This document shows positions 799 through 43,345 of a stretch of 46,053 nt of DNA, piece by piece. Below the pieces are notes generated by a model. It was not told where the DNA came from, did not search any database, and was given only the letters and a program-made list of their open reading frames with translations. How positions within the stretch are numbered: position 1 is the first letter of the stretch; each line of letters begins with the position of its first letter. Source of the stretch: Candidatus Peribacteria bacterium RIFCSPHIGHO2_02_FULL_53_20 (GTDB lineage: Bacteria; Patescibacteriota; Gracilibacteria; Peribacterales; Peribacteraceae); contig MFXW01000074.1 of the NCBI GenBank assembly GCA_001787585.1, positions 1-46,053 of the forward strand, read 5' to 3'. The position numbers and the translations under genes were made by a program.

Positions 799-891
799 GA
801 AGGGCGCAAGAACCAAGGGCGCAAGGGCACAAGGAATGTTTTTTGTGTAGCGGGAATTTGCGCCCTTGCGCCCTTGGGATTTGTGCCCTTT
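799..891. repeat. Imperfect palindrome built from three direct and three inverted copies of the octamer AAGGGCRC; likely the hpf terminator
   Basis: Plus strand: gAAGGGCGCaagaaccAAGGGCGCAAGGGCACaagg, then a spacer, then tttGCGCCCTTGCGCCCTTgggatttGTGCCCTTtc. The core stem pairs ccaagggcgcaagggc with gcccttgcgcccttgg. It abuts the hpf stop codon at 892-894. Confidence 0.6.
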
Positions 892-4134: not shown

Positions 4135-7100
4135 ATGGCAGACAACGTCGAGATCTCTCCGGCCAATAAACTGCTCGAATTCTTCTGTGATAAAAATCAT
4201 CCCACACAGGAGTTACTCGACGAACTTCGCCGCATTACGACGACGGATCGTCCGGGAATTCTGACGACAGTACGCGAGGGACTTCAGAAGCTCGGAGCCG
4301 AGCAACAGACAATCGCTGATGACAATATGAAGCTTCTGCGTGAACGTGTTGACGCGAATGAGCAGGAAGGAGCTAAGGATCCGGAGCAACTGATATCCGA
4401 AGAAGAGGTTCTTTCTCTCAGGAGTGAACTCGATTTGCTTCGCGACAGTCTTTCGAAAGATCCTTTTGCACAAGAGGTCAAAACAAAGGAAGAATCGAAC
4501 GAAACCAATACGCCTCTGAAGCCATTAGAACAATCACGCGCACCATACGAGGAATCTGTTCCGCAGACACCTGCAAAACAGGAACAGTTGCAGAAGAAAA
4601 TTTCCGCGGCACCGGAGAAATGGTTTCCGCAATCCGCTGATCCCAGAGAGTGGACCGGCAAACAGATCGCCACTCTCTCTGCAATTACTCTAGGTGGTGT
4701 GGGGCTCTATGCGCTCTGGAAATGGATGCGTGGCGAAAAGAAGGGTGGTGCCTCAGACGAGAAACGTAGTAAGTGGAATTGGATGCTATGGGTGCCCTTT
4801 GCTGGTTTGACCGGATATCTCGGATACAAAATGTGGAACAAATACGGTCCCGGATCAAAAGAAACTGCCGATGATAAAAAAAGAAAAGATGATCGGGACT
4901 ATTTGCCTGATGCATTGCCCGATGTCATTGAAAAACCAGCAGAGGCAGTCATCGGAGGAGTAGAGCAAGGGATTGATAAGTTAGTGGAAACATTCGGCCC
5001 TGCTGCTTACGAATTGATGAATCATGAGCACACGAGTGCAGTGCTCAAGAAGAGGCAATCCGGTGAGTACAAGTCGGATGCATTGTTCTGGGCAGCAATG
5101 GTCGGAGCCATGAGTCTCGATGGTATCGATCTTGTTATTGATGAAACCGCCTGTACACTCTGGATCGGAGGCAAAGTTGTTGAATGTAACATCAAAGGCT
5201 GGAGCCAGCTTATTGAGGGGTTTGCGGATGGGCATATTGATCTTCCCGAAGGATGCGATCTGGTTGCGACGTATATCGAGGGAGTCTTTGTCTATGCGAC
5301 ATCCCTGTACGCGCTGAAGGCGGTGACCCTCAATCGTATCGGCAGAGGAGCCAATGTGATCGGGGAGGCATTCGGCTGGCCGGTCTATTCCATCACACGC
5401 GGTGCAAAAGGAACATGGCGCATTGCAAAGGGCACCGTGGAACTTGGAATTTCCAATTCTCCTACGCGCTTAGTCATTGCCCGCGAGGCAGACGCTCTTC
5501 GTCTGGAAACCAAACTGCGGCTTGGTACATTCTCCAGGCGCTTTGCTGCGGCGACTCCGGAAGGATTATGGATGCGGAAGGAATTTGTCGCAGATCAGGC
5601 CAATCGTCTTTTTCTCGCAAAGAACAGAAAGGTAAGTGAAGCTTCCATCAAGCAATTTGAAAAAGCATTTGGTCGGGCAGCTGAAGATTTCCATACATAT
5701 CTGAAACGTGTTCCTCCGGATCAATTACCAGACTGGTTTATCAAGGCCGTGAAAGCACGGTATCCCAATATTGATCCCACAAAAATCGAACTGACACACA
5801 TGGAAGGATTGATGCGCCATTTGGGAGAGGGAAGTGCAAATGTGGTCGATGCAGCACCGGATAGTGCAGATGCTCTCAATAAGGTGCCGACATCCGCTAC
5901 CGATACCTCCGCAGGCAGTCGTCTGCGTCAAGCTGCGGGTGGGGAAGTCATTGAGCCAAAACCCGAGACCGCAAAAATCACATCTTCAGCTTCGGAAAAG
6001 CCCGCATTTAATGTGGTTCGGAGAGATGGAACGGTGGTCGATGGATCGGGCAAAGTCATTGGAGAAGGAGATGTCGCCGCACAGTCTGCGAAAGCTGCTG
6101 AGCGTGCGACGGGTGCTATAGATGAAGTAACAGAGACCGCAAAAGGCGTTGCAGCCGCGGAAGTATTATCCGCAGCCGATGAAACCCGATGGAAGCAATT
6201 GCTCTCCAAATTTGGCGAAGGTGCAGAAGCACAAAATGTCCGCGCGTTCCTCGAAGCCGCTTCCGAGCAAAAACTCATCAAACTCGATGCAGAGGTATTT
6301 GCACTGATCAACGAAAGTCCCGGTGCACAAAAAATCATCACGGGTGCGGTACAAACCGGTGACGTAGCAGAAATTACCCGTGCAATGAATGCTGCGAGTG
6401 CTGCCCGCAATTTCCGAGTAGGATTGAATGCCGTCGGTGCCGCAGGCGATCTCTTTGGTGCGTACATGGCATATTGTGACTACGCTGCAAATGGCGCACG
6501 CATCGAAACAGCGATGAATTCGAAGAATGCCGCGCTTGCTGATCTTTATCGAAACGCGAATTACATTTATGGAGTTGAGGGAACGCAGAGCGCAGCCGGT
6601 CTCGCGATTGGTGGTGTTGCTATTGTGAAGGCGTATGTGGGAGGTCAAAGTCTGCTTACGGCTCTGGGTGCTTCCGGTGGACTCATCATGCTTCCGGTTG
6701 CCGCGGCTACCCTCAGTGGAGGATTCGTCTATCGCAAAGCGGAAGGAGTGACGGAGACGTGGTTGAGAACTTCCAAAGATTGGCAGAAGGCGCTTTCTCC
6801 CGGTGAGCTTTTGGAAAAGCTCAAGGAACTAGGTCCCGGCAAGCGGGGGTATTGGCAGGGGTGGGGAAAGGGCACGATTGTGGAGCAAATTATGCGAGCG
6901 AAGACGGCTGGGGAATCCGGTAATATCGGGGCGTATCAGCAATGGGAAGAGGAGGGCGAGCAGAGGATCGAGAAAGCCAATGAGAGCACGCGTTTGGAGA
7001 TTACAAAAGCGTACGTCGTCCGCACATCCTTACTTGCGAAGCAGACTGAGGAAACAGATGAGCAGTACACGCGACGCTTCGATTGCTTTGTGATGGATCA

Positions 7101-8133: not shown

Positions 8134-8170
8134 ATGTCTCTTTCGCAGGAGAAGCGTTACGGAATACTCT

Positions 8171-8295
8171 TATGTCGTGCCCCTGAGCTTCACGCAGTTG
8201 GCTTCCTATCGCCGCTGCCCCCGTCAGTACGAGTACTGCACCATCAAAAAAATCCCGAAGGGGATTTCCCTTGGTGCAGCATTCGGTGCGCTCAT
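8171..8295 (+). pseudogene. Truncated 5-prime remnant of a second PD-(D/E)XK nuclease gene
   Basis: Codons for (M)PLSFTQLASYRRCPRQYEYCTIKKIPKGISLGAAFGA parallel the first ~40 codons of the intact gene at 9445 (MALSFTQLAAYRRCPRQYEYCYIKKIPKGVSPGEAFGA). The ATG at 8171 is out of frame with this reading, and homology stops near 8295. Confidence 0.7.
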
Positions 8296-8528
8296 GTTGT
8301 GGATCGTCTATTCATCCATGACATCACCCCTCAATCCCTTTGCAAGCTCACGGAAAAATTTCTGCACTTCCGCCGCAGTCACCGGGGTGACGAGATGTGG
8401 AACGATCGTCAGCCAGCAAAAGCATGAGAAATGCCCGGCGGTCTTCGGGAATCCGCAGTGCGGGGAGATGTTTTTTCAGTAACTCTCGGGGGAGTTTTTG
8501 GTCCGCCAAGGTCGTAGAGAATCGCACG

Positions 8529-9158
8529 CTATTTCAGTGCGGTTTTCTTTACTGCCTCCCGAAGAATCTGTTGCCATGTGCCGGCGAGCACGGTATCCAG
8601 CACCTTCGGTATTTCTCCTTCCAGATCATGGAAGGTCGTGAGCGCACGTAGGACAATCATCGGATTCCATCGGTCGCCGTATTTCTGCGGTCCGGCATCC
8701 AGGAGGGCACCGAGTCGGATCTCCCCCCGCAGAATCTGTGCGAGATCGATGTAATCTCGCAGAGCGGCGCGTTGGACAACGGCAATCAGTTTCATCAGAG
8801 CGATGTCCCAGACGGACGCGATGTCCACGTGCCCTTCCTGTAGCGGGGCGTGGAGGAGCGGTGGCGGATAGTTTGCGATGAAGCTCATTTTCACACCGTC
8901 GACGGTGCAGTAGAGTGTGTGACTATCCTCCGACATCAGTGTGAGAGCACCCATCTTCCTGAGGTGATCCGCAATGCCCTGCACTCCAGGGTTCGCTGAG
9001 AAGAAGTCGAAATCTACCGATAGACGATGACCGAGCTGCAGAGCCAGCCCCGTACCGCCGGCGAGGTACCACTTTGCTGATTGCAACCAATCTGCTTCTT
9101 CTGTGAGATGTCTCCATAGCCGCTGTTGTGCTTCAGGCAAGATCGCGGTGTGCATCAT
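8529..9158 (-). CDS. Nucleotidyltransferase, AbiEii/AbiGii toxin family (short form, ~209 aa)
   Basis: From MMHTAILPEAQQRL... the motif WYLAGGTGLALQLGHRLSVDFDFFS is typical of AbiEii-type NTases (GGTAL...R.S.D+DF). The longer N-terminal extension in the track is Arg-rich junk that overlaps the upstream ORF. Confidence 0.7.
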   Translation of the reverse strand: MMHTAILPEAQQRLWRHLTEEADWLQSAKWYLAGGTGLALQLGHRLSVDFDFFSANPGVQGIADHLRKMGALTLMSEDSHTLYCTVDGVKMSFIANYPPPLLHAPLQEGHVDIASVWDIALMKLIAVVQRAALRDYIDLAQILRGEIRLGALLDAGPQKYGDRWNPMIVLRALTTFHDLEGEIPKVLDTVLAGTWQQILREAVKKTALK

Positions 9159-9444: not shown

Positions 9445-10323
9445 ATGGCGCTGAGTTTTACGCAGTTAGCGGCTTATCGCCGCTGCCCCCGTCAGTACGA
9501 GTATTGCTACATCAAGAAAATTCCAAAGGGAGTTTCTCCGGGGGAAGCATTTGGTGCGTCGGTGCACAATGCGCTGAAGAAGTGGGGGGATTTGGAGATG
9601 ATGCAATCCTCGGATGAGCAAGCGATTGGCGATAAGCGATTAGCGGTTAGCAGACAACCGAGGTTGTTTGTAGAGGAGCAGGAAGCTAATCGCCAACCGC
9701 TATCCGCTATCCGCTTACATGCCTTATGGCATGAACATTTTCCGTTGAATGCATTCCCAACGAGAGTCGAAGCAGACGCTGCGCGTATGAGAGGAGAGGA
9801 GTTAATGACATTGTTTTATGCATGGTGGAGCGAACGACCGCGGGAAGTGGTGGCGGTGGAGAAGGGATTTTCAATTGATATTGGCGATGAGCGGTTAGCG
9901 GTTAGCGATGAGCGGTTAGCCGCGAAAGCTACACGCTATCCGCTCATCGCTCATCGCTTCACTCTTACTGGCCGCTTCGATCGCATTGAGCGCACGCCGG
10001 AAGGTTTGCATGTCATCGATTTCAAGACGTCGCAGCCGCGGACGCAGGCGGAAGTGGATGCCGATTTGCAGCTTTCGATTTATGCACTGGCGGCGCGTGA
10101 GGATTTCGGAGAGCTGCCGGTCGTATTGTCCCTGCTCCACATCACCGAAGACGGGATTCTGGAGATGCGGACAACGCGCCATGCAGGACAAGTGCAGGAT
10201 GCGATCAAGCAGATCACAGCGATCCACGGACGGATCACCGAAAAAGATTTCCGACCGACGCCGGCGGCGGCTGTGTGTAAATGGTGTCCGTATAAGGGAG
10301 TGTGTGACGTGGCGGCGGTGTAG
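9445..10323 (+). CDS. PD-(D/E)XK nuclease with Cas4/AddB-type Fe-S cysteines (RecB-family exonuclease)
   Basis: N-terminal Cys in YRRCPRQYEY. Nuclease motifs GRFDRIE, VIDFKTSQ and QLSIYALA. C-terminal CKWCPYKGVC. The start is taken at the ATG at 9445; the upstream extension in the track overlaps the minus-strand genes. Confidence 0.8.
   Translation: MALSFTQLAAYRRCPRQYEYCYIKKIPKGVSPGEAFGASVHNALKKWGDLEMMQSSDEQAIGDKRLAVSRQPRLFVEEQEANRQPLSAIRLHALWHEHFPLNAFPTRVEADAARMRGEELMTLFYAWWSERPREVVAVEKGFSIDIGDERLAVSDERLAAKATRYPLIAHRFTLTGRFDRIERTPEGLHVIDFKTSQPRTQAEVDADLQLSIYALAAREDFGELPVVLSLLHITEDGILEMRTTRHAGQVQDAIKQITAIHGRITEKDFRPTPAAAVCKWCPYKGVCDVAAV
9622..9719. repeat. In-frame palindromic module 1: tandem heptamers GCGATTG GCGATAA GCGATTA GCGGTTA, spacer, inverted heptamers GCTAATC GCCAACC GCTATCC GCTATCC
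   Basis: Read directly from the sequence. The arms pair imperfectly, with purine transitions. A central mini-hairpin reads acaacc ga ggttgt. Confidence 0.8.
9884..9962. repeat. In-frame palindromic module 2: GCGATGA GCGGTTA GCGGTTA GCGATGA GCGGTTA, 14-nt loop, GCTATCC GCTCATC GCTCATC
   Basis: gcgatgagcggttagc (9905-9920) pairs with gctatccgctcatcgc (9935-9950) at 15 of 16 positions. It encodes GDERLAVSDERLAAKATRYPLIAHR. Confidence 0.85.
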
Positions 10324-10346
10324 AGACGTCCGGCCGGACGTCTCTA
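10321..10346 (+). terminator. Perfect 26-bp palindrome overlapping the nuclease stop codon
   Basis: tagagacgtccgg/ccggacgtctcta. No U-tract follows, so a terminator function is only plausible. Confidence 0.4.
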
Positions 10347-10390
10347 CGGTAGCCGTCACACGCGATCATTGTTTGTTGTATGCTTCCCCT

Positions 10391-16372: not shown

Positions 16373-16432
16373 GGGTTTGTTCTTTTCGGGCATGGAACCA
16401 TTTTTATCCCATACGGAAGCCATAATTTGCTC

Positions 16433-16952
16433 ATTTGGCATTTGGCAAAGAAGTTGCCCATTTCCCTGAGATCATTGGTGCGGCATGGTGTGGGCATGAC
16501 GACCACCACATCATCTGTTGCCAATACTCGTCCTCAGGGACGAATGCTGGAAGAACGGACCGAAGCTTTCGCAGGTAGTGTAAGGACATTTTTGAAAATG
16601 ATTCCTAAAACGGTCGAGCAAGAAGATGATATGGCTCAATTGCGTAGGGCAGCAGGCTCGGTCGCTGCAAATTACATAGAGGCGAATGAAGCATTGGGAA
16701 AACCAGATTTTTGTATGCGCATTCGGATTTGTCTCAAGGAATCGAAGGAAGCCAGGCTCTGGCTCAGACTACTTGATGGTTGCCGTCCAGGAACTCCTCA
16801 AGAGGAATTGCGTCAAAGTCTTATCAATGAATCACATGAGTTAGTTCGCATTTTCGGTGCAATCTTACGAACAGTAAAGAAGACCCTTCACACTCAATAA
16901 TGTGCAGCAATGGTCAATGTCTACTGGGCAACTTCTTTGCCAAATGCCAAAT
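16433..16952. other. IVS-like cassette: four-helix-bundle gene bracketed by a perfect 28-bp inverted repeat
   Basis: Left arm 16433-16460 is atttggcatttggcaaagaagttgccca. Right arm 16925-16952 is tgggcaacttctttgccaaatgccaaat, its exact reverse complement. The arms contain a tandem ATTTGGC heptamer. Imperfect pairing extends about 10 nt outward. Confidence 0.85.
16544..16900 (+). CDS. Four-helix-bundle protein (TIGR02436; 23S rRNA intervening-sequence protein family)
   Basis: MLEERTEAFAGSVRTF...QLRRAAGSVAANYIEANEALGKPDFCMRIRICLKESKEARLWLRLL matches the family pattern (QL.RSA.S+.ANI.EA......DF..K..IA.KE..ET..WL). At 118 aa it has the typical size. An alternative start is 16496. Confidence 0.8.
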   Translation: MLEERTEAFAGSVRTFLKMIPKTVEQEDDMAQLRRAAGSVAANYIEANEALGKPDFCMRIRICLKESKEARLWLRLLDGCRPGTPQEELRQSLINESHELVRIFGAILRTVKKTLHTQ

Positions 16953-33430: not shown

Positions 33431-34936
33431 TTAGGAAGGAAAAAGAAGAGTAAATGTGGTGCCCTTGTTCTCCTCCGAGACAAAAAAGATGGTGCCTCCA
33501 ATCAAACGAACAATATTATAGACCATATATAAGCCAATGCCGGTTCCGGCCTCCTCGCGGCTTGCAATGTTTGAGGCACGGAAGAATTTCTCGGCGATGT
33601 TTCCCTGCTCAGCCCTAGGGATGCCGTAGCCAGTATCCGTAACATCGATACGGATCATTTCGTCTTCTGTTGTAGCACGTACGGTCACTTTCCCGTTCTT
33701 TGGCGTGTAGTTGTATGCATTATTGAGGAGGTTGCTGAGGATTTCGATGAGCAGCTGCTCGTCTGTGTGGGCGCGCAGATTCTGCGAGCCATGGATCACA
33801 AGTTCCAGTGCATGCCTCTCTCGATCTCCATCGAAGAGACGAGCGACCTTCTCGATGACCAACCGTACGTCCACTTGTGACCTTTTCTCCTCTATGCCGC
33901 CCATTTCGATGCGAGAGATCATCAGCATCTTATTGATGGTCGCAGCCATTTGTACGGCTGCTTCATGGGCACCGTTCACCAGATGGATTTGCTCTTTTGG
34001 AAGATGTTCTCTCTTGAGACTCGAGAGAGCCCATCGGATGGATGTGAGTGGTGTGCGCAGCTGGTGGCTGGCCAGAGACACGAATTCTGTTTTCGCTTTG
34101 TCAATATTTTTTTCTTTGGTGATATCGCGAAATGTTTCGACGATGCCGATAATTTCCCTTTCCAGAACAATGGGTGTCACGATACTGCTTGCAGGAAACC
34201 GGCTTTTATCTTTGCGGATATAATAAAAAGGTTGCGTCACGTCCGCGATCACTTTTTCTCCAGAGAGCACTTGAGACAAAATTCTCTCTTTCAGAAGCAC
34301 AACATTGCCTTTTTCATCTTCGCGGGGGACAACCTCAACCATATATTTCCCCAATACTTTTTGTGCTTTCCAGCCAACCATATCTTCAAACGTTTTGTTG
34401 ACGTATGTTATTTTTCCTTCTTTATCTGCGACAACGATTCCATCCCCAATACTTGCCAATATCGCCTCGCCTTTTACCCTGGCTTGCTCCAGATCTTTGG
34501 TGCGTTCCAGCACCTTCTTTTCAAGTGTTAAGCGCGATAGTTTGAGTTCCTTTGCCGTTATGACCAGCTTGCGTCTGATACTTTCCTTTTCCTTGGCGGT
34601 CACCGCGAGGTTTTGGGCTTTCCGTTTGAGCTCCTTTGCCGTTACTACCAGTTTGCGCTTGGTATTTTCCTTTTCCTTGGCAGTCACGGCGAGCTCAGCA
34701 GCTTTGATGCGGAGTTTTTCTGCCGTCACTACAAGCTTGCGCCGGACATCTTCCTTTTCCCTTGCGGTCACCGCGAGGTTTTTGGCTTTTCGTTTGAGTT
34801 CCTTTGCCGTTACCAGGAGCTTCCGCCGGACATCCTCCTTTTCCCTGGCAGTCACGGCGAGCTCAGCAGCTTTGATGCGAAGTTTTTTCGCCGTTACCGC
34901 GAGCTTGCGTCGGACACTTTCCGTTTTCCTGGCCAA
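33431..34936 (-). CDS. Soluble sensor histidine kinase (repeat coiled coil - PAS - HisKA - HATPase_c)
   Basis: PAS-like ILASIGDGIVVADKEGKITYVNKTFEDMVGW, H-box FVSLASHQLRTPLTSI, N-box LLNNAYNYTP, G-boxes DTGYGIP and GTGIGLYMV. No TM segment. Confidence 0.88.
   Translation of the reverse strand: MARKTESVRRKLAVTAKKLRIKAAELAVTAREKEDVRRKLLVTAKELKRKAKNLAVTAREKEDVRRKLVVTAEKLRIKAAELAVTAKEKENTKRKLVVTAKELKRKAQNLAVTAKEKESIRRKLVITAKELKLSRLTLEKKVLERTKDLEQARVKGEAILASIGDGIVVADKEGKITYVNKTFEDMVGWKAQKVLGKYMVEVVPREDEKGNVVLLKERILSQVLSGEKVIADVTQPFYYIRKDKSRFPASSIVTPIVLEREIIGIVETFRDITKEKNIDKAKTEFVSLASHQLRTPLTSIRWALSSLKREHLPKEQIHLVNGAHEAAVQMAATINKMLMISRIEMGGIEEKRSQVDVRLVIEKVARLFDGDRERHALELVIHGSQNLRAHTDEQLLIEILSNLLNNAYNYTPKNGKVTVRATTEDEMIRIDVTDTGYGIPRAEQGNIAEKFFRASNIASREEAGTGIGLYMVYNIVRLIGGTIFFVSEENKGTTFTLLFPS
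34547..34921. repeat. About 4.5 tandem copies of an 84-bp (28-codon) unit, organised as a 168-bp super-repeat, inside the kinase 5-prime region
   Basis: Protein units are ExxRRKLxVTAKxLxxKAxxLAVTAxEK. ggcagtcacggcgagctcagcagctttgatgcg recurs exactly 168 nt apart (about 34680 and 34848). Confidence 0.85.
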
Positions 34937-38076: not shown

Positions 38077-39486
38077 TTACAACCCCACCACCGCATATGG
38101 CACTTTCGCCAAAATCCTCGCCGTTTCCGTTATCCATTCCGCCGCTCCGTATCCCGCGAACCCTACAAGTTGTCCCAAAGGAAACCAAACAACACTCATC
38201 ATCGTTCCGAGAAATCCCAGAAGCATCGCAATCGGAACCATCGGCGCCGCGAGGATATTGCTTAAAGGCGCGATCAGCGACACTTGACCGAAAGTGAGGA
38301 TACTCACGGGAAGCGTCGTGATTTGTGCCGCGAGCGTTGCCGCGAGACTGTCTCTTAAGCCCAGGGTTTCCGGAACTTTTGCAAATGCCCGTTGTAATCG
38401 TGGGCCGATTTCGGTTACGCCAATCACTGCAGCGAAGGAAAGTTGAAACCCTGCATCCCACCAGAGTTGTTCGGGTTTGAAGAGCGTCATGAAAAATGCC
38501 GTCCAGAGAATTGCGAGACGCGTGTCGCGGATGCGCCCGAGTTGTAAGGCGAGTACTCCGAGGATGCCCATTACGCCTGCGCGCACGACAGATGCCGAGG
38601 CTCCGACGAAGAGCGTGAAGAGGATGATTGCTATGATCTGAGGAAAAAACCGCCACTTGAGCGGGAGCCAGAAGAGGAGTCCTCCGAGGATTCCTATGAT
38701 GATCGTGACGTTCGTTCCCGAGATCGCCACAAGATGTGTGAGGCCGGTCGCAGCGAAGTCATCGAGCAGTCTCTTCGAAAATCCGCGGCGTTCGCCGGTG
38801 AGGAGCCCGGTGATCAATGCGGCTTCGGGTTCGGGGAAGAGGCGATTGATGCGGGATTCGAACCAGAGGCGGGTGGATTGGAGAGTGCGGCGGAGATGGA
38901 TGGTAGGGCGTAGGGCATTGGGCGTAGGGGCAGATGTGATTTTTGCACGTTTAAGAATCATTGTTATTCCCTGAAGTCGCAAGTAATGCGTGTAGTTGAA
39001 GTCTTCTGAATTTTTTGGAAGCTCCAGCATTCCTTCAGCGCGTATCTGATCGCCGATTCTATACTCGGGCCAGCCGCCGAAGTCTTCGATGAGGACGGAG
39101 CCGGTGACAGGGATCAGCGTTCCGGATTGATCAATGAGGTTGACTGCTAGCGGGTAGAGAGCGGATGGGGGTTTGCCGGCGGGGTCGCCTGTGACGGTGC
39201 CGAGGAGGGTGATTTTTTGGGAGGCGTAGGAGGGGATGGTTTGGGATTGGAGGCTTCGCGTTGCATGAGCGACAGTCCAAAGCGCGAGGGCGATGCTGAG
39301 AGATATCGTGAACATCATTGTGATTGGCTTGTTGTGTTTGATGGCGCCGAGGAGACCAAGGAAACCAAGGAGACCGAGGAACGTCCATATCCATATCGGG
39401 TACGCGGGCAGCTGCCACCACTGCAGGAGGAATGTTGCGAACAGAAATGTGCCGATGAAGAAAGAGGCGATGCGGGAGGGGCGCAC
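38077..39486 (-). CDS. comEC: ComEC/Rec2-family DNA internalisation channel (no metallo-beta-lactamase domain)
   Basis: ALITGLLTGERRGFSKRLLDDFAATGLTHLVAISGTNVTIIIGIL is the competence-domain signature. GTG start lies 3 nt after the rsmA stop. Confidence 0.85.
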   Translation of the reverse strand: MRPSRIASFFIGTFLFATFLLQWWQLPAYPIWIWTFLGLLGFLGLLGAIKHNKPITMMFTISLSIALALWTVAHATRSLQSQTIPSYASQKITLLGTVTGDPAGKPPSALYPLAVNLIDQSGTLIPVTGSVLIEDFGGWPEYRIGDQIRAEGMLELPKNSEDFNYTHYLRLQGITMILKRAKITSAPTPNALRPTIHLRRTLQSTRLWFESRINRLFPEPEAALITGLLTGERRGFSKRLLDDFAATGLTHLVAISGTNVTIIIGILGGLLFWLPLKWRFFPQIIAIILFTLFVGASASVVRAGVMGILGVLALQLGRIRDTRLAILWTAFFMTLFKPEQLWWDAGFQLSFAAVIGVTEIGPRLQRAFAKVPETLGLRDSLAATLAAQITTLPVSILTFGQVSLIAPLSNILAAPMVPIAMLLGFLGTMMSVVWFPLGQLVGFAGYGAAEWITETARILAKVPYAVVGL

Positions 39487-39489
39487 CTT

Positions 39490-40302
39490 TTAATTCTTTT
39501 CCTTCATCTTCGCCAGCGCGATCCACTCCTTCACACTTAAAGTCTGTGGTCTTCGTTTTTCGTCTATCTGTAGCGAAGAAAGACGTTCCATGAGCTCAGG
39601 GAACGGACCGAAGGTATTCCGGAGCATTTTGCGTTTCTGGCTGAAAGCGATCTTCACCAGGCGGAATACTTCTTCGATGGTCACAAGATTAGCCAAGGGT
39701 TTTTCAAAGCACTGGATTTGGAGCACTGCGGAGTCTACGGCTGGTGGTGGAAGGAAACATTGAGGAGAAACTGTGCGAACGATCTTCGGTGTTCCAAAAA
39801 GTCCGACGAGAATCGTGAGAAGTCCGCGGTCTTCTTTGTCGCAAATCTTTTCTGCGACTTCGCGTTGAATGAGGAGCGTCAATGACTTCGGATGCACGAT
39901 TGATTCCAGGAATACATGACGCAGAAGAGGGGAGGTGATGTGGTAGGGAATGTTGGCGACGATGCGGTACTCCTCTGAGGGCATTGGAGTGTGGAGGGCG
40001 TTGCCTTGGATAATGACGAGCTTCTCAGCTTCTTGGCTGCTCAGCTTCTCAGAAGTAAATGTTTTGAGTAAGGGAATCATGCGGTCATCGAGTTCTATTG
40101 CTGTGACGTGGTTTGCGCGTTTCAGAAGTTCTACCGTGAGCACGCCGATACCCGGACCAATTTCAACGATGCGGTCTGGGGGTTCGATACCCGCTGCTTC
40201 GATGATGCTTTGAAGCACGTCCGCATCAATAAGAAAATGTTGCCCGAGATCGGTATTGAGGCGGATGCCGCAGAGCCGGAGAAATGAAGCGACTTCAGAC
40301 AT
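39490..40302 (-). CDS. rsmA: 16S rRNA (adenine1518/1519-N6)-dimethyltransferase
   Basis: LGQHFLID, VEIGPGIGVLT, ANIPYHITSPLL. Confidence 0.92.
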   Translation of the reverse strand: MSEVASFLRLCGIRLNTDLGQHFLIDADVLQSIIEAAGIEPPDRIVEIGPGIGVLTVELLKRANHVTAIELDDRMIPLLKTFTSEKLSSQEAEKLVIIQGNALHTPMPSEEYRIVANIPYHITSPLLRHVFLESIVHPKSLTLLIQREVAEKICDKEDRGLLTILVGLFGTPKIVRTVSPQCFLPPPAVDSAVLQIQCFEKPLANLVTIEEVFRLVKIAFSQKRKMLRNTFGPFPELMERLSSLQIDEKRRPQTLSVKEWIALAKMKEKN

Positions 40303-43199: not shown

Positions 43200-43345
43200 C
43201 TTCCCCCCATCCCCCGACCCCTTCCTCCACGGGAGGAAGGGGAGCTCTGTTTCCAGAGTGAAGAAGCAATTGTCTTTCCTTGTTGCATGCATACAAAACA
43301 CACACATCCCCCTCCTCCTGTGGAGGAGGGGTTAGGGGTGGGGGC
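43200..43345. repeat. G/C-tract composite palindromic element, copy C (full length)
   Basis: cttccccccatcccccgaccccttcctccacgggaggaaggggagctctgtt, ~55-nt spacer similar to copy B, atccccctcctcctgtggaggaggggttaggggtggggg. It lies between the convergent genes ending at 43199 and 43364. Confidence 0.9.

Follow-up and report, generated by a model that had tools for sequence, protein, structure and literature searches.

The stretch of DNA analysed here (46,053 nucleotides (nt) of contig MFXW01000074.1 from Candidatus Peribacteria bacterium RIFCSPHIGHO2_02_FULL_53_20, hereafter the window) carries a PD-(D/E)XK nuclease gene whose reading frame runs through two palindromic modules, each made of a tandem array of seven-nucleotide units followed by its inverted copy. 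We found that these modules are not a new class of element but local instances of a repeat habit that extends over Peribacteria. The unusual part is their location: two disordered loops of a conserved nuclease hold them in frame, and one of these loops is a repeat-bearing linker throughout the class. With a probability of about 0.58, we consider them to be heptanucleotide simple sequence repeat (SSR) arrays with an inverted partner, that is, products of slippage and template switching that were filtered by the reading frame and are tolerated in disordered loops without any switch function. The gene and the parts of the two modules, with period and copy number from Tandem Repeats Finder (TRF) and folds from the minimum free energy (MFE) structure, are as follows.

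9445..10323, + strand: gene for the PD-(D/E)XK nuclease of 292 amino acids (aa), Cas4/AddB-like with a C-terminal Cys cluster, carrying both modules.
9622..9651, + strand: module 1 left array, GCGATTG GCGATAA GCGATTA GCGGTTA GC (four full units, 9622-9649), residues 60-69 (AIGDKRLAVS); TRF period 7, 4.4 copies.
9652..9684, + strand: module 1 spacer of 33 nt, residues 70-80 (RQPRLFVEEQE), with a mini-hairpin CAGACAACC/GGTTGTTTG that is present in the MFE fold.
9685..9718, + strand: module 1 right array, GCTAATC GCCAACC GCTATCC GCTATCC GCTTAC (four units, 9685-9712), residues 81-92 (ANRQPLSAIRLH); TRF period 7.
9884..9920, + strand: module 2 left array, GCGATGA GCGGTTA GCGGTTA GCGATGA GCGGTTA GC (five units, 9884-9918), encoding DERLAVSDERLA; TRF period 7, 4.4 copies.
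9921..9934, + strand: module 2 loop, containing GCGAAAGC at 9922-9929, from the sequence and the MFE structure.
9935..9959, + strand: module 2 right array, GCTATCC GCTCATC GCTCATC GCTT, with a preceding unit GCTACAC from 9928, residues ~164-172 (YPLIAHR); TRF period 7.

The sequence of the modules is as the original prediction had described it. Both (9622-9718 and 9884-9959) consist of the heptamer GCGRTKA / TMAYCGC in inverted arrays, and TRF finds four period-7 arrays in them, at 9621-9651, 9697-9715, 9890-9920 and 9941-9958. In an inverted-repeat search the arms of 24 nt were 75% complementary in module 1 and 88% complementary in module 2; the arms of each module are separated by 14-40 nt, and those of module 1 are also complementary to those of module 2. 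The two-unit pattern GCGRTKAGCGRTKA, with at most one mismatch, has 9 matches in the window, every one within the modules, against an expectation of 0.29, and 9 matches were reached in 0/100 dinucleotide-preserving shuffles. A chance origin is excluded and the modules are real. They are also not an assembly artefact, because the nuclease gene is identical over 879 nt in five independent assemblies (among 18 contigs) and a sister species, represented by contig L080, carries both modules as well. An identical nuclease protein is also on deposit from metagenome-assembled genomes (MAGs) of Candidatus Peribacteria.

As RNA, module 1 folds at -39.5 kcal/mol (z -3.4) and module 2 at -45.4 kcal/mol (z -5.7), the latter with a perfect 12-bp stem between its right array and 9883-9894 in the MFE fold. 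The antisense strands of both modules fold as well as the sense strands. No Rfam 15 family matched the modules at its gathering score, the best being miRNA-precursor models with 21-23 bits against a gathering score of 90. A role as intrinsic terminator is rejected because a U tract is absent, module 1 being followed by CATGCCTTATGG and module 2 by CTTCACTCTTACTGG, and because both modules lie mid-gene. The sequence GCGAAAGC in the module 2 loop would be a mini-hairpin motif of the GCGNNAGC type, and the heptamer junctions (GCGNNNAGC) look similar; PMC13037366 describes GCGNNAGC as an extraordinarily stable DNA mini-hairpin motif.

The reading frame of 9445-10323 is unbroken across both modules, which lie between the conserved nuclease motifs at residues 60-92 and 147-172, as had been proposed. 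A heptamer array is read through all three frames in turn, and the consensus units hold TAG at the unit junction in the left arms and TAA in the right arms. Every third unit falls in codon phase 1, five in all (9629, 9884, 9905, 9692 and 9935), where the consensus would each time produce an in-frame stop codon, and all five are altered exactly at the stop-forming base (ATTA to ATAA, GTTA to ATGA, TAAT to CAAC and TAAC to TATC). In module 1, unit 2 of the left array has ATAA instead of the consensus ATTA, averting an in-frame TAG, and unit 2 of the right array has CAAC instead of TAAT, averting an in-frame TAA. In module 2, both phase-1 units of the left array read GCGATGA, whereas GCGGTTA would create TAG in frame, and the phase-1 unit of the right array has TATC instead of TAAC, again averting TAA. 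A large part of the differences among units, and several mismatches in the stems, are explained by these stop-avoiding base changes. In the left arm of module 2, lag-21 identity is 1.00 as against a lag-7 identity of 0.80; therefore, the last expansion of this arm was a 21-nt, 7-codon duplication (DERLAVS DERLAA). Lag-7 identity in the module arrays is 0.76-0.83, and at most two identical units stand side by side.

The versions that we observed are only frame-keeping, stop-free ones, and 72/72 full-length orthologs are in frame. This bears on the earlier suggestion of a contingency locus, in which the nuclease would be turned off or on by adding or dropping a single 7-nt unit. A change by one unit does shift the frame, as seven is not divisible by three, and phase variation based on SSRs is a well-documented phenomenon elsewhere in bacteria (PMC4679880). 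However, a locus with no more than two identical adjacent units, with heterogeneity that is precisely stop-avoiding, with a last expansion of 21 nt, with 0/72 orthologs frameshifted and with the same gene in all five assemblies makes such a switch hardly credible. The proteins P0016-P0019 and P0026, which could have been taken for frameshifted (phase-off) alleles, were rejected as such, since in the contig DNA their N-terminal 50 residues lie in the same frame behind a GTG start; the truncated calls P0017, P0019 and P0026 in particular count against the switch for this reason. The public gene calls of these proteins and of the orthologs in L201, L204 and L205 begin at an ATG inside the heptamer array that precedes the QLxLF motif (site 1, defined below) and lose ~50 N-terminal residues, the true start being an in-frame GTG upstream. 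Orthologs that seem to start within the array are start-codon annotation artefacts, and it is of practical importance that gene callers start several orthologs in this way.

The nuclease itself has a full-length match to Pfam PDDEXK_1 (PF12705, E 7e-33) and a weak match to Cas_Cas4 (E 6.5e-5), and the catalytic D...D-x-K core and the C-terminal Cys cluster are all present. Among 100 nuclease homologues D179, D192, K194, C14, C278, C281 and C287 are invariant. Its 235 database homologues belong, wherever named, to Peregrinibacteria, Peribacteria or Patescibacteria, and mostly to the first two. An AlphaFold2 model built with 100 homologues has a mean predicted local distance difference test (pLDDT) score of 91.4 over the whole protein, and its best Foldseek matches in the PDB are ACE1 (Cas4 family), the AdnA/AdnB nuclease domains and AddB (E 2e-9 to 3e-7). 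The only 10-residue blocks with a pLDDT below 85 are those of residues 61-80 (61 and 71) and 151-170 (63 and 65), which correspond to the two modules. The structure check that had been proposed thus places both modules on the sole low-confidence segments of an otherwise confident model, in which both inserts are predicted to be flexible excursions from a well-defined nuclease core.

The same kind of array is frequent in related DNA. The comparison set consisted of 79 loci around nuclease orthologs, taken from species-representative genomes that are nearly all Peribacteria, together with the window (1.18 Mb in all), and non-overlapping TRF arrays were counted against a first-order Markov control. 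There were 170 period-7 arrays versus 25 in the control, a ~7-fold excess, in addition to 88 versus 28 for period 8 and 45 versus 7 for period 14; the remaining enriched periods are all multiples of three, and period 7 is the dominant non-triplet period. In a crude test based on long open reading frames (ORFs), which counts shadow ORFs, covers 89% of bases and serves for intergenic enrichment only, the ~11% of bases outside long ORFs contain 42% of the 303 arrays of period 7, 8 or 14. For 65/303 arrays (21%) a partner in inverted orientation was found no more than 150 nt away, and under strict criteria 39 pairs of an array and its reverse-complement array were counted, with units that vary by genome and with many of the pairs directly after stop codons; 28 arrays at the orthologous loci begin within 120 nt past the nuclease stop codon. 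One hairpin (L003, 3661-3741) lies at a gene start and in the intergenic spacer. The location of the modules inside an ORF is unlike that of these clade-wide, mostly intergenic arrays. The 170 period-7 arrays comprise 121 different units, which argues that there is no single element family. A metagenome scan for three GCGRTNA units gave at least 120 matches (L081-L200), not attributable to the window's organism; among the matches listed, such arrays are common in environmental bacteria and typically sit at or just past a stop codon, and in at least 19 of the 120 a complementary array downstream makes a near-perfect hairpin (for example L107, L106 and L117).

The nuclease genes hold more than their share of these arrays, with 67/303 in 5.4% of the bases (1.06 per kb versus 0.21 per kb elsewhere), distributed by residue as 33 at 50-59, 14 at 70-89 and 11 at 140-169. 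We defined site 1 as the segment between the invariant E51 and Q71 in the 72-ortholog alignment and site 1b as the linker after a conserved family motif, QLxLF(xEE), that stands between the two sites and reads QPRLF in the window. With a best period of 7 and a lag-7 identity of at least 0.55 as the threshold, site 1 contains a period-7 array in 29/72 orthologs (40%), as against 1/360 length-matched control windows from the C-terminal domain. The units vary by clade (GAGAATT, GGAATGC, AAAATTG, GGGCGTA, GGAATCC, GAAGGCA, CAATTGG and others) and encode 7-aa-periodic peptides such as IENGKLKIENSEK or RASSGKSQASSG. Site 1 is 9-15 aa long in 59 orthologs and 19-21 aa in 9, with single cases of 25, 29, 29 and 33 aa and none of 16-18 or 22-24 aa, and these gaps suggest steps of ~7 aa (21 nt).

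Module 1 brackets the QLxLF motif, and the mini-hairpin noticed in the original prediction is the DNA coding for that motif; we infer that its stem arises because the Gln (CAA) and Leu (TTG) codons are complementary to each other. Among the 100 homologues Q71 is invariant and F75 nearly so, and the QLxLF segment (window residues 70-80) lies in a low-pLDDT loop. The right arm of module 1 overlaps the semi-conserved residues L86 (nearly invariant) and L91 (invariant). Because the linker bears repeats class-wide and the right arm falls on semi-conserved residues, module 1 is not a simple insertion. QLxLF is the consensus motif for binding to the beta sliding clamp (PMC4549789), and by this likeness the segment is probably a beta-clamp-binding peptide, which suggests that a widespread nuclease of candidate phyla radiation (CPR) bacteria may be recruited by, or work on, the sliding clamp. 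In L201 (~1240-1340) and L205 (~860-960 and 1119-1140), a partial duplicate of the nuclease 5' end (ALSFTQLSSYKRCPRPS...) is fused to CCTTCGACAGGCTCAGGA just upstream of the gene, and in L205 the CCTTCGACAGGCTCAGGA motif is present also within site 1 of the nuclease gene itself.

Selection at the level of the protein could in principle have shaped this region, with the 7-aa-periodic peptides acting as length-adjustable tethers that present QLxLF and the DNA repeat kept for an evolvable linker length. The motif is conserved between two hypervariable linkers whose lengths cluster in the ~7-aa steps, the left arrays, rich in purines, code for hydrophilic residues, and the high array density in the nuclease gene is concentrated at site 1. 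Since this account explains neither the inverted partner nor module 2, and since the linkers have no conserved sequence, have low model confidence and flank a clamp-binding motif that is putative, we regard it as very improbable.

Module 2 has a different history. It is flanked by two strands, one following the invariant E139 and one leading to GRFDR, and sits at the tip of a beta-hairpin between catalytic motifs. The segment has 10 aa in most of the 72 orthologs and 33 aa in the window, and it is otherwise long only in the close relatives L001, L002 and L003 (22-29 aa), where it is also heptamer-built and in part decayed, and in a few unrelated cases. The restriction of the long segment to few relatives makes module 2 a clade-specific insertion. 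The possibility that both modules are lineage-specific insertions is therefore borne out for module 2 and fails for module 1, which occupies a class-wide period-7 linker. In L058, the corresponding loop (site 2) holds an insert of 56 aa, in frame and forming a long imperfect palindrome (5974-6120), and two more partial copies of it, 93-96% identical, lie 2 kb away at 8170-8297. The L058 insert is a genuine dispersed palindromic element of the type of the Rickettsia palindromic elements (RPEs), and it indicates that the site-2 loop accepts such DNA.

The L058 case demonstrates that insertions of this kind happen in the gene and leads to the question of whether the modules are themselves copies of a small non-autonomous mobile element, similar to an RPE or to a miniature inverted-repeat transposable element (MITE), inserted in frame into permissive loops. 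The confinement of the module 2 insertion to the window's clade agrees with this, as does the in-frame position of the modules at structurally permissive, low-pLDDT sites with the frame intact. On the other hand, no target-site duplication or flanking direct repeat was found at the module borders, and the arrays at site 1 throughout the class point to persistence and not to repeated insertion. One unit family is common to both modules, but no further GCGRTKA array was found in the 46-kb window (the 11-kb sister contig L080 was searched within the gene only). Units are shared within genomes at 9 times the between-genome level, yet the order of units, the loop and the flanks are not the same at loci with a common unit, and the number of distinct units is large, as noted above. 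The mobile mini-element of the original prediction is hence improbable for the modules of the window.

We return to slippage and template switching as the preferred reading. Arrays would lengthen and shorten by replication slippage in a 7-nt register, and template switching between nearby arms, intrastrand or by fold-back, would create the inverted partner and keep it similar. The reading frame would act as a filter by which in-frame, stop-free versions are kept, and the arrays sit where the protein tolerates them, in the flexible linkers beside QLxLF and at the beta-hairpin tip between the catalytic motifs. The modules may then add flexible, low-complexity loop residues that are dispensable for catalysis and constitute no switch, and any effect of an mRNA or DNA hairpin on expression would be secondary.

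The comparison with the sister species L080 (P0002), whose nuclease is 67% identical at the aa level and has the same unit family in both modules, bears on another alternative, namely that the hairpins are selected nucleic-acid structures, such as an mRNA processing site or a translation pause around the QLxLF segment, or a DNA cruciform, the heptamers being incidental. The fold z-scores in the window are strong, but in L080 module 1 falls to z -1.6, and module 2, at z -3.95, lacks the 12-bp stem without compensatory changes. Arms at one position co-vary across species with differing sequences (L013, L021, L023, L024 and L045), and clade-specific complementary arms occur in the window, L013, L021/L041, L023, L024, L045 and L052; however, a site 1/site 1b complementarity score of at least 8 is reached in only ~19% of the orthologs, and codon shuffling of the E48-W96 region gives a median z of -0.1 (72 orthologs). 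This 19% resembles the share of all arrays that have an inverted partner (21%), which indicates a general genome tendency and not a universally kept structure. The closing pair of the mini-hairpin is C:G in the window and T:A in L080, which speaks for a selected structure, although that stem would follow from the codons of the peptide motif in any case. Synonymous conservation is raised in the arms; there is no sense/antisense asymmetry in folding, and no Rfam family match was obtained (best 23 bits versus a gathering score of 90). Taken together, we find a selected structure unlikely.

Several observations nevertheless weigh against slippage and template switching as the whole explanation, beginning with the fact that both processes are read from the anatomy of the arrays and not observed. 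The left arms of the window and L080 have 90% (module 1) and 81% DNA identity versus 64-72% elsewhere in the gene, and the same codon is used for 25/32 identical residues in the arms versus 76/158 elsewhere (p 0.002). Likewise, in 28 independent ortholog pairs, those that keep the array have a same-codon fraction of 0.81-1.0 in the linker versus 0.54-0.80 in the rest of the gene. Conserved synonymous sites should not be expected of neutral loops. The 19% of orthologs with complementary arms compare with 4% of cross-species arm pairs (Mann-Whitney p 2e-6), and selection for pairing would likewise yield such species-specific complementarity. Unit sharing between separate loci was found in 11/165 comparisons within a genome versus 74/9988 between genomes (9-fold), and the loci involved include the nuclease site 1 and loci kilobases away with different loops, flanks and unit order, so that this sharing is not explained by slippage in place. 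In some pairs the array is wholly replaced even though the remaining protein is 85-96% identical (L004/L006, L015/L023 and L001/L002). Drift by point mutation in a neutral loop predicts neither this stasis with replacement nor the within-genome sharing.

Some homogenising or selective force is therefore acting on the array DNA. A stronger version of this idea is that an active genome-wide process seeds, spreads and homogenises self-complementary heptamer arrays in Peribacteria, and that the nuclease QLxLF linker is a class-wide site that keeps an array hairpin by selection at the DNA or RNA level. It draws on the pattern of stasis with conserved synonymous sites, broken by wholesale unit replacement. 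We hold it to be rather unlikely; if true, the process would amount to an undescribed, in-frame repeat element with fast turnover and not to a passive by-product of slippage.

Other repeats and genes of the window, and one of the sister contig, are described here. The four array or palindrome features are:

10320..10347, + strand: perfect 14+14 nt palindrome GTAGAGACGTCCGG/CCGGACGTCTCTAC, starting within the nuclease stop codon; 100% complementary in the inverted-repeat search.
800..890, no strand assigned: octamer-array hairpin of the same architecture, AAGGGCGC x4.5, a loop and TTGCGCCC x2.4, between predicted genes (TRF).
38903..38929, - strand: in-frame heptamer array, GTAGGGC x3.9 as read on the + strand, in the DUF4131/Competence interdomain linker of a ComEC-like gene (38080-39486), from TRF, Pfam and translation.
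40019..40052, - strand: in-frame octamer array AGCTTCTC x4.2 in a KsgA/RsmA-like rRNA adenine dimethylase gene (39493-40302, - strand).

The palindrome at 10320-10347 occupies a terminator-like position; in many orthologs a hairpin of heptamer or octamer arrays is found there. The hairpin at 800-890 has 33-nt arms that are 85% complementary and folds at -60.8 kcal/mol (z -8.7). The unit family of the array in the ComEC-like gene (GGGCGTA) fills the nuclease site 1 in five other species of Peribacteria (L014, L017, L021, L025 and L069). Two short heptamer arrays, CATTTGG at 16432-16447 and TGCCAAA at 16938-16952, are reverse complements of each other, stand ~500 nt apart and flank a 157-aa ORF. 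At 34540-34933, long tandem repeats with units of 84 nt (3.8 copies) and 168 nt (2.2 copies), matching at 73-82%, lie over a 501-aa ORF on the - strand (33431-34936) and probably encode a 28-aa protein repeat. An imperfect inverted repeat of 39 nt, 79% complementary with its halves 49 nt apart and rich in CCCC/GGGG, lies between two genes at 43212-43338. In L080, a bAvd / 23S_rRNA_IVP-like gene occupies 8270-8635 between a DUF212 gene and proS, where the window has no ORF; proteins of the bAvd type are accessory proteins of diversity-generating retroelements.

Non-triplet repeats are commonly regarded as barred from genes or as on/off switches, whereas here a 7-nt repeat and its inverted copy persist in frame, and arrays occupy one linker of one gene across a whole class of CPR bacteria. 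The nuclease thus offers a tractable natural case for how heptamer families like the STRRs of cyanobacteria (sequences that are short, tandemly repeated and repetitive) arise, spread and stay homogeneous, and for how simple repeats create protein linkers. In the literature we found no description of such repeats in Peregrinibacteria or Peribacteria.

The view that the modules belong to no described class has to be given up, because heptanucleotide SSR arrays and the inverted heptamer pairs of Xanthomonas have already been described. According to the summary in PMC4679880 of Mrazek, Guo & Shah 2007, heptanucleotide repeats are the most abundant long SSRs (LSSRs) in most prokaryotic genomes, their proposed cause is slippage of the polymerase in a 7-nt register, and LSSR units that are not a multiple of three are reported to be avoided in coding regions. 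LSSRs resemble the Peribacteria arrays in being tandem 7-nt units far above chance and mostly intergenic, and they differ from the modules, which are in frame inside a gene and have stop-avoiding variants, a 21-nt super-period and an inverted partner. Each Xanthomonas genome has 70-75 convergent inverted pairs of GGGAATC arrays with ~four units, which lie for the most part between genes and close to stop codons (Rehm et al. 2015, PMC4692102). The Peribacteria arrays share with them the ~four-heptamer length, the complementary array close by and the position near stop codons, and in the modules, too, an array is followed closely by its reverse-complement array. In both groups, presence and pair type are conserved among related species while length varies. 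Unlike Peribacteria, with 121 units in 170 arrays and with modules that are intragenic and not prone to form G-quadruplexes, Xanthomonas uses one G-rich unit that has G-quadruplex potential and is under-represented in ORFs.

RPEs, the classic case of palindromic DNA that sits in frame in unrelated genes, form ten families of defined elements of ~150 bp, each with a conserved peptide and many copies (PMC10969869). The modules are like them in being palindromic DNA in frame at positions compatible with the protein fold, and unlike them in being 75-100 nt of tandem heptamers of which the unit alone is shared with other loci, no conserved body or ends having been found. The likeness to the heptamer STRRs of cyanobacteria, which the original prediction had also drawn, is apt. 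STRRs are genome-specific heptamer families dispersed over many loci, and Vioque is said to have described in 1997 cyanobacterial STRR heptamers inside the RNase P RNA gene. We know of no description of STRRs as in-frame inverted arrays inside protein-coding genes. Their host phylum and unit sequences differ from those of the modules, but in both cases a heptamer array can lie within a functional gene, at a site where added length is tolerated.

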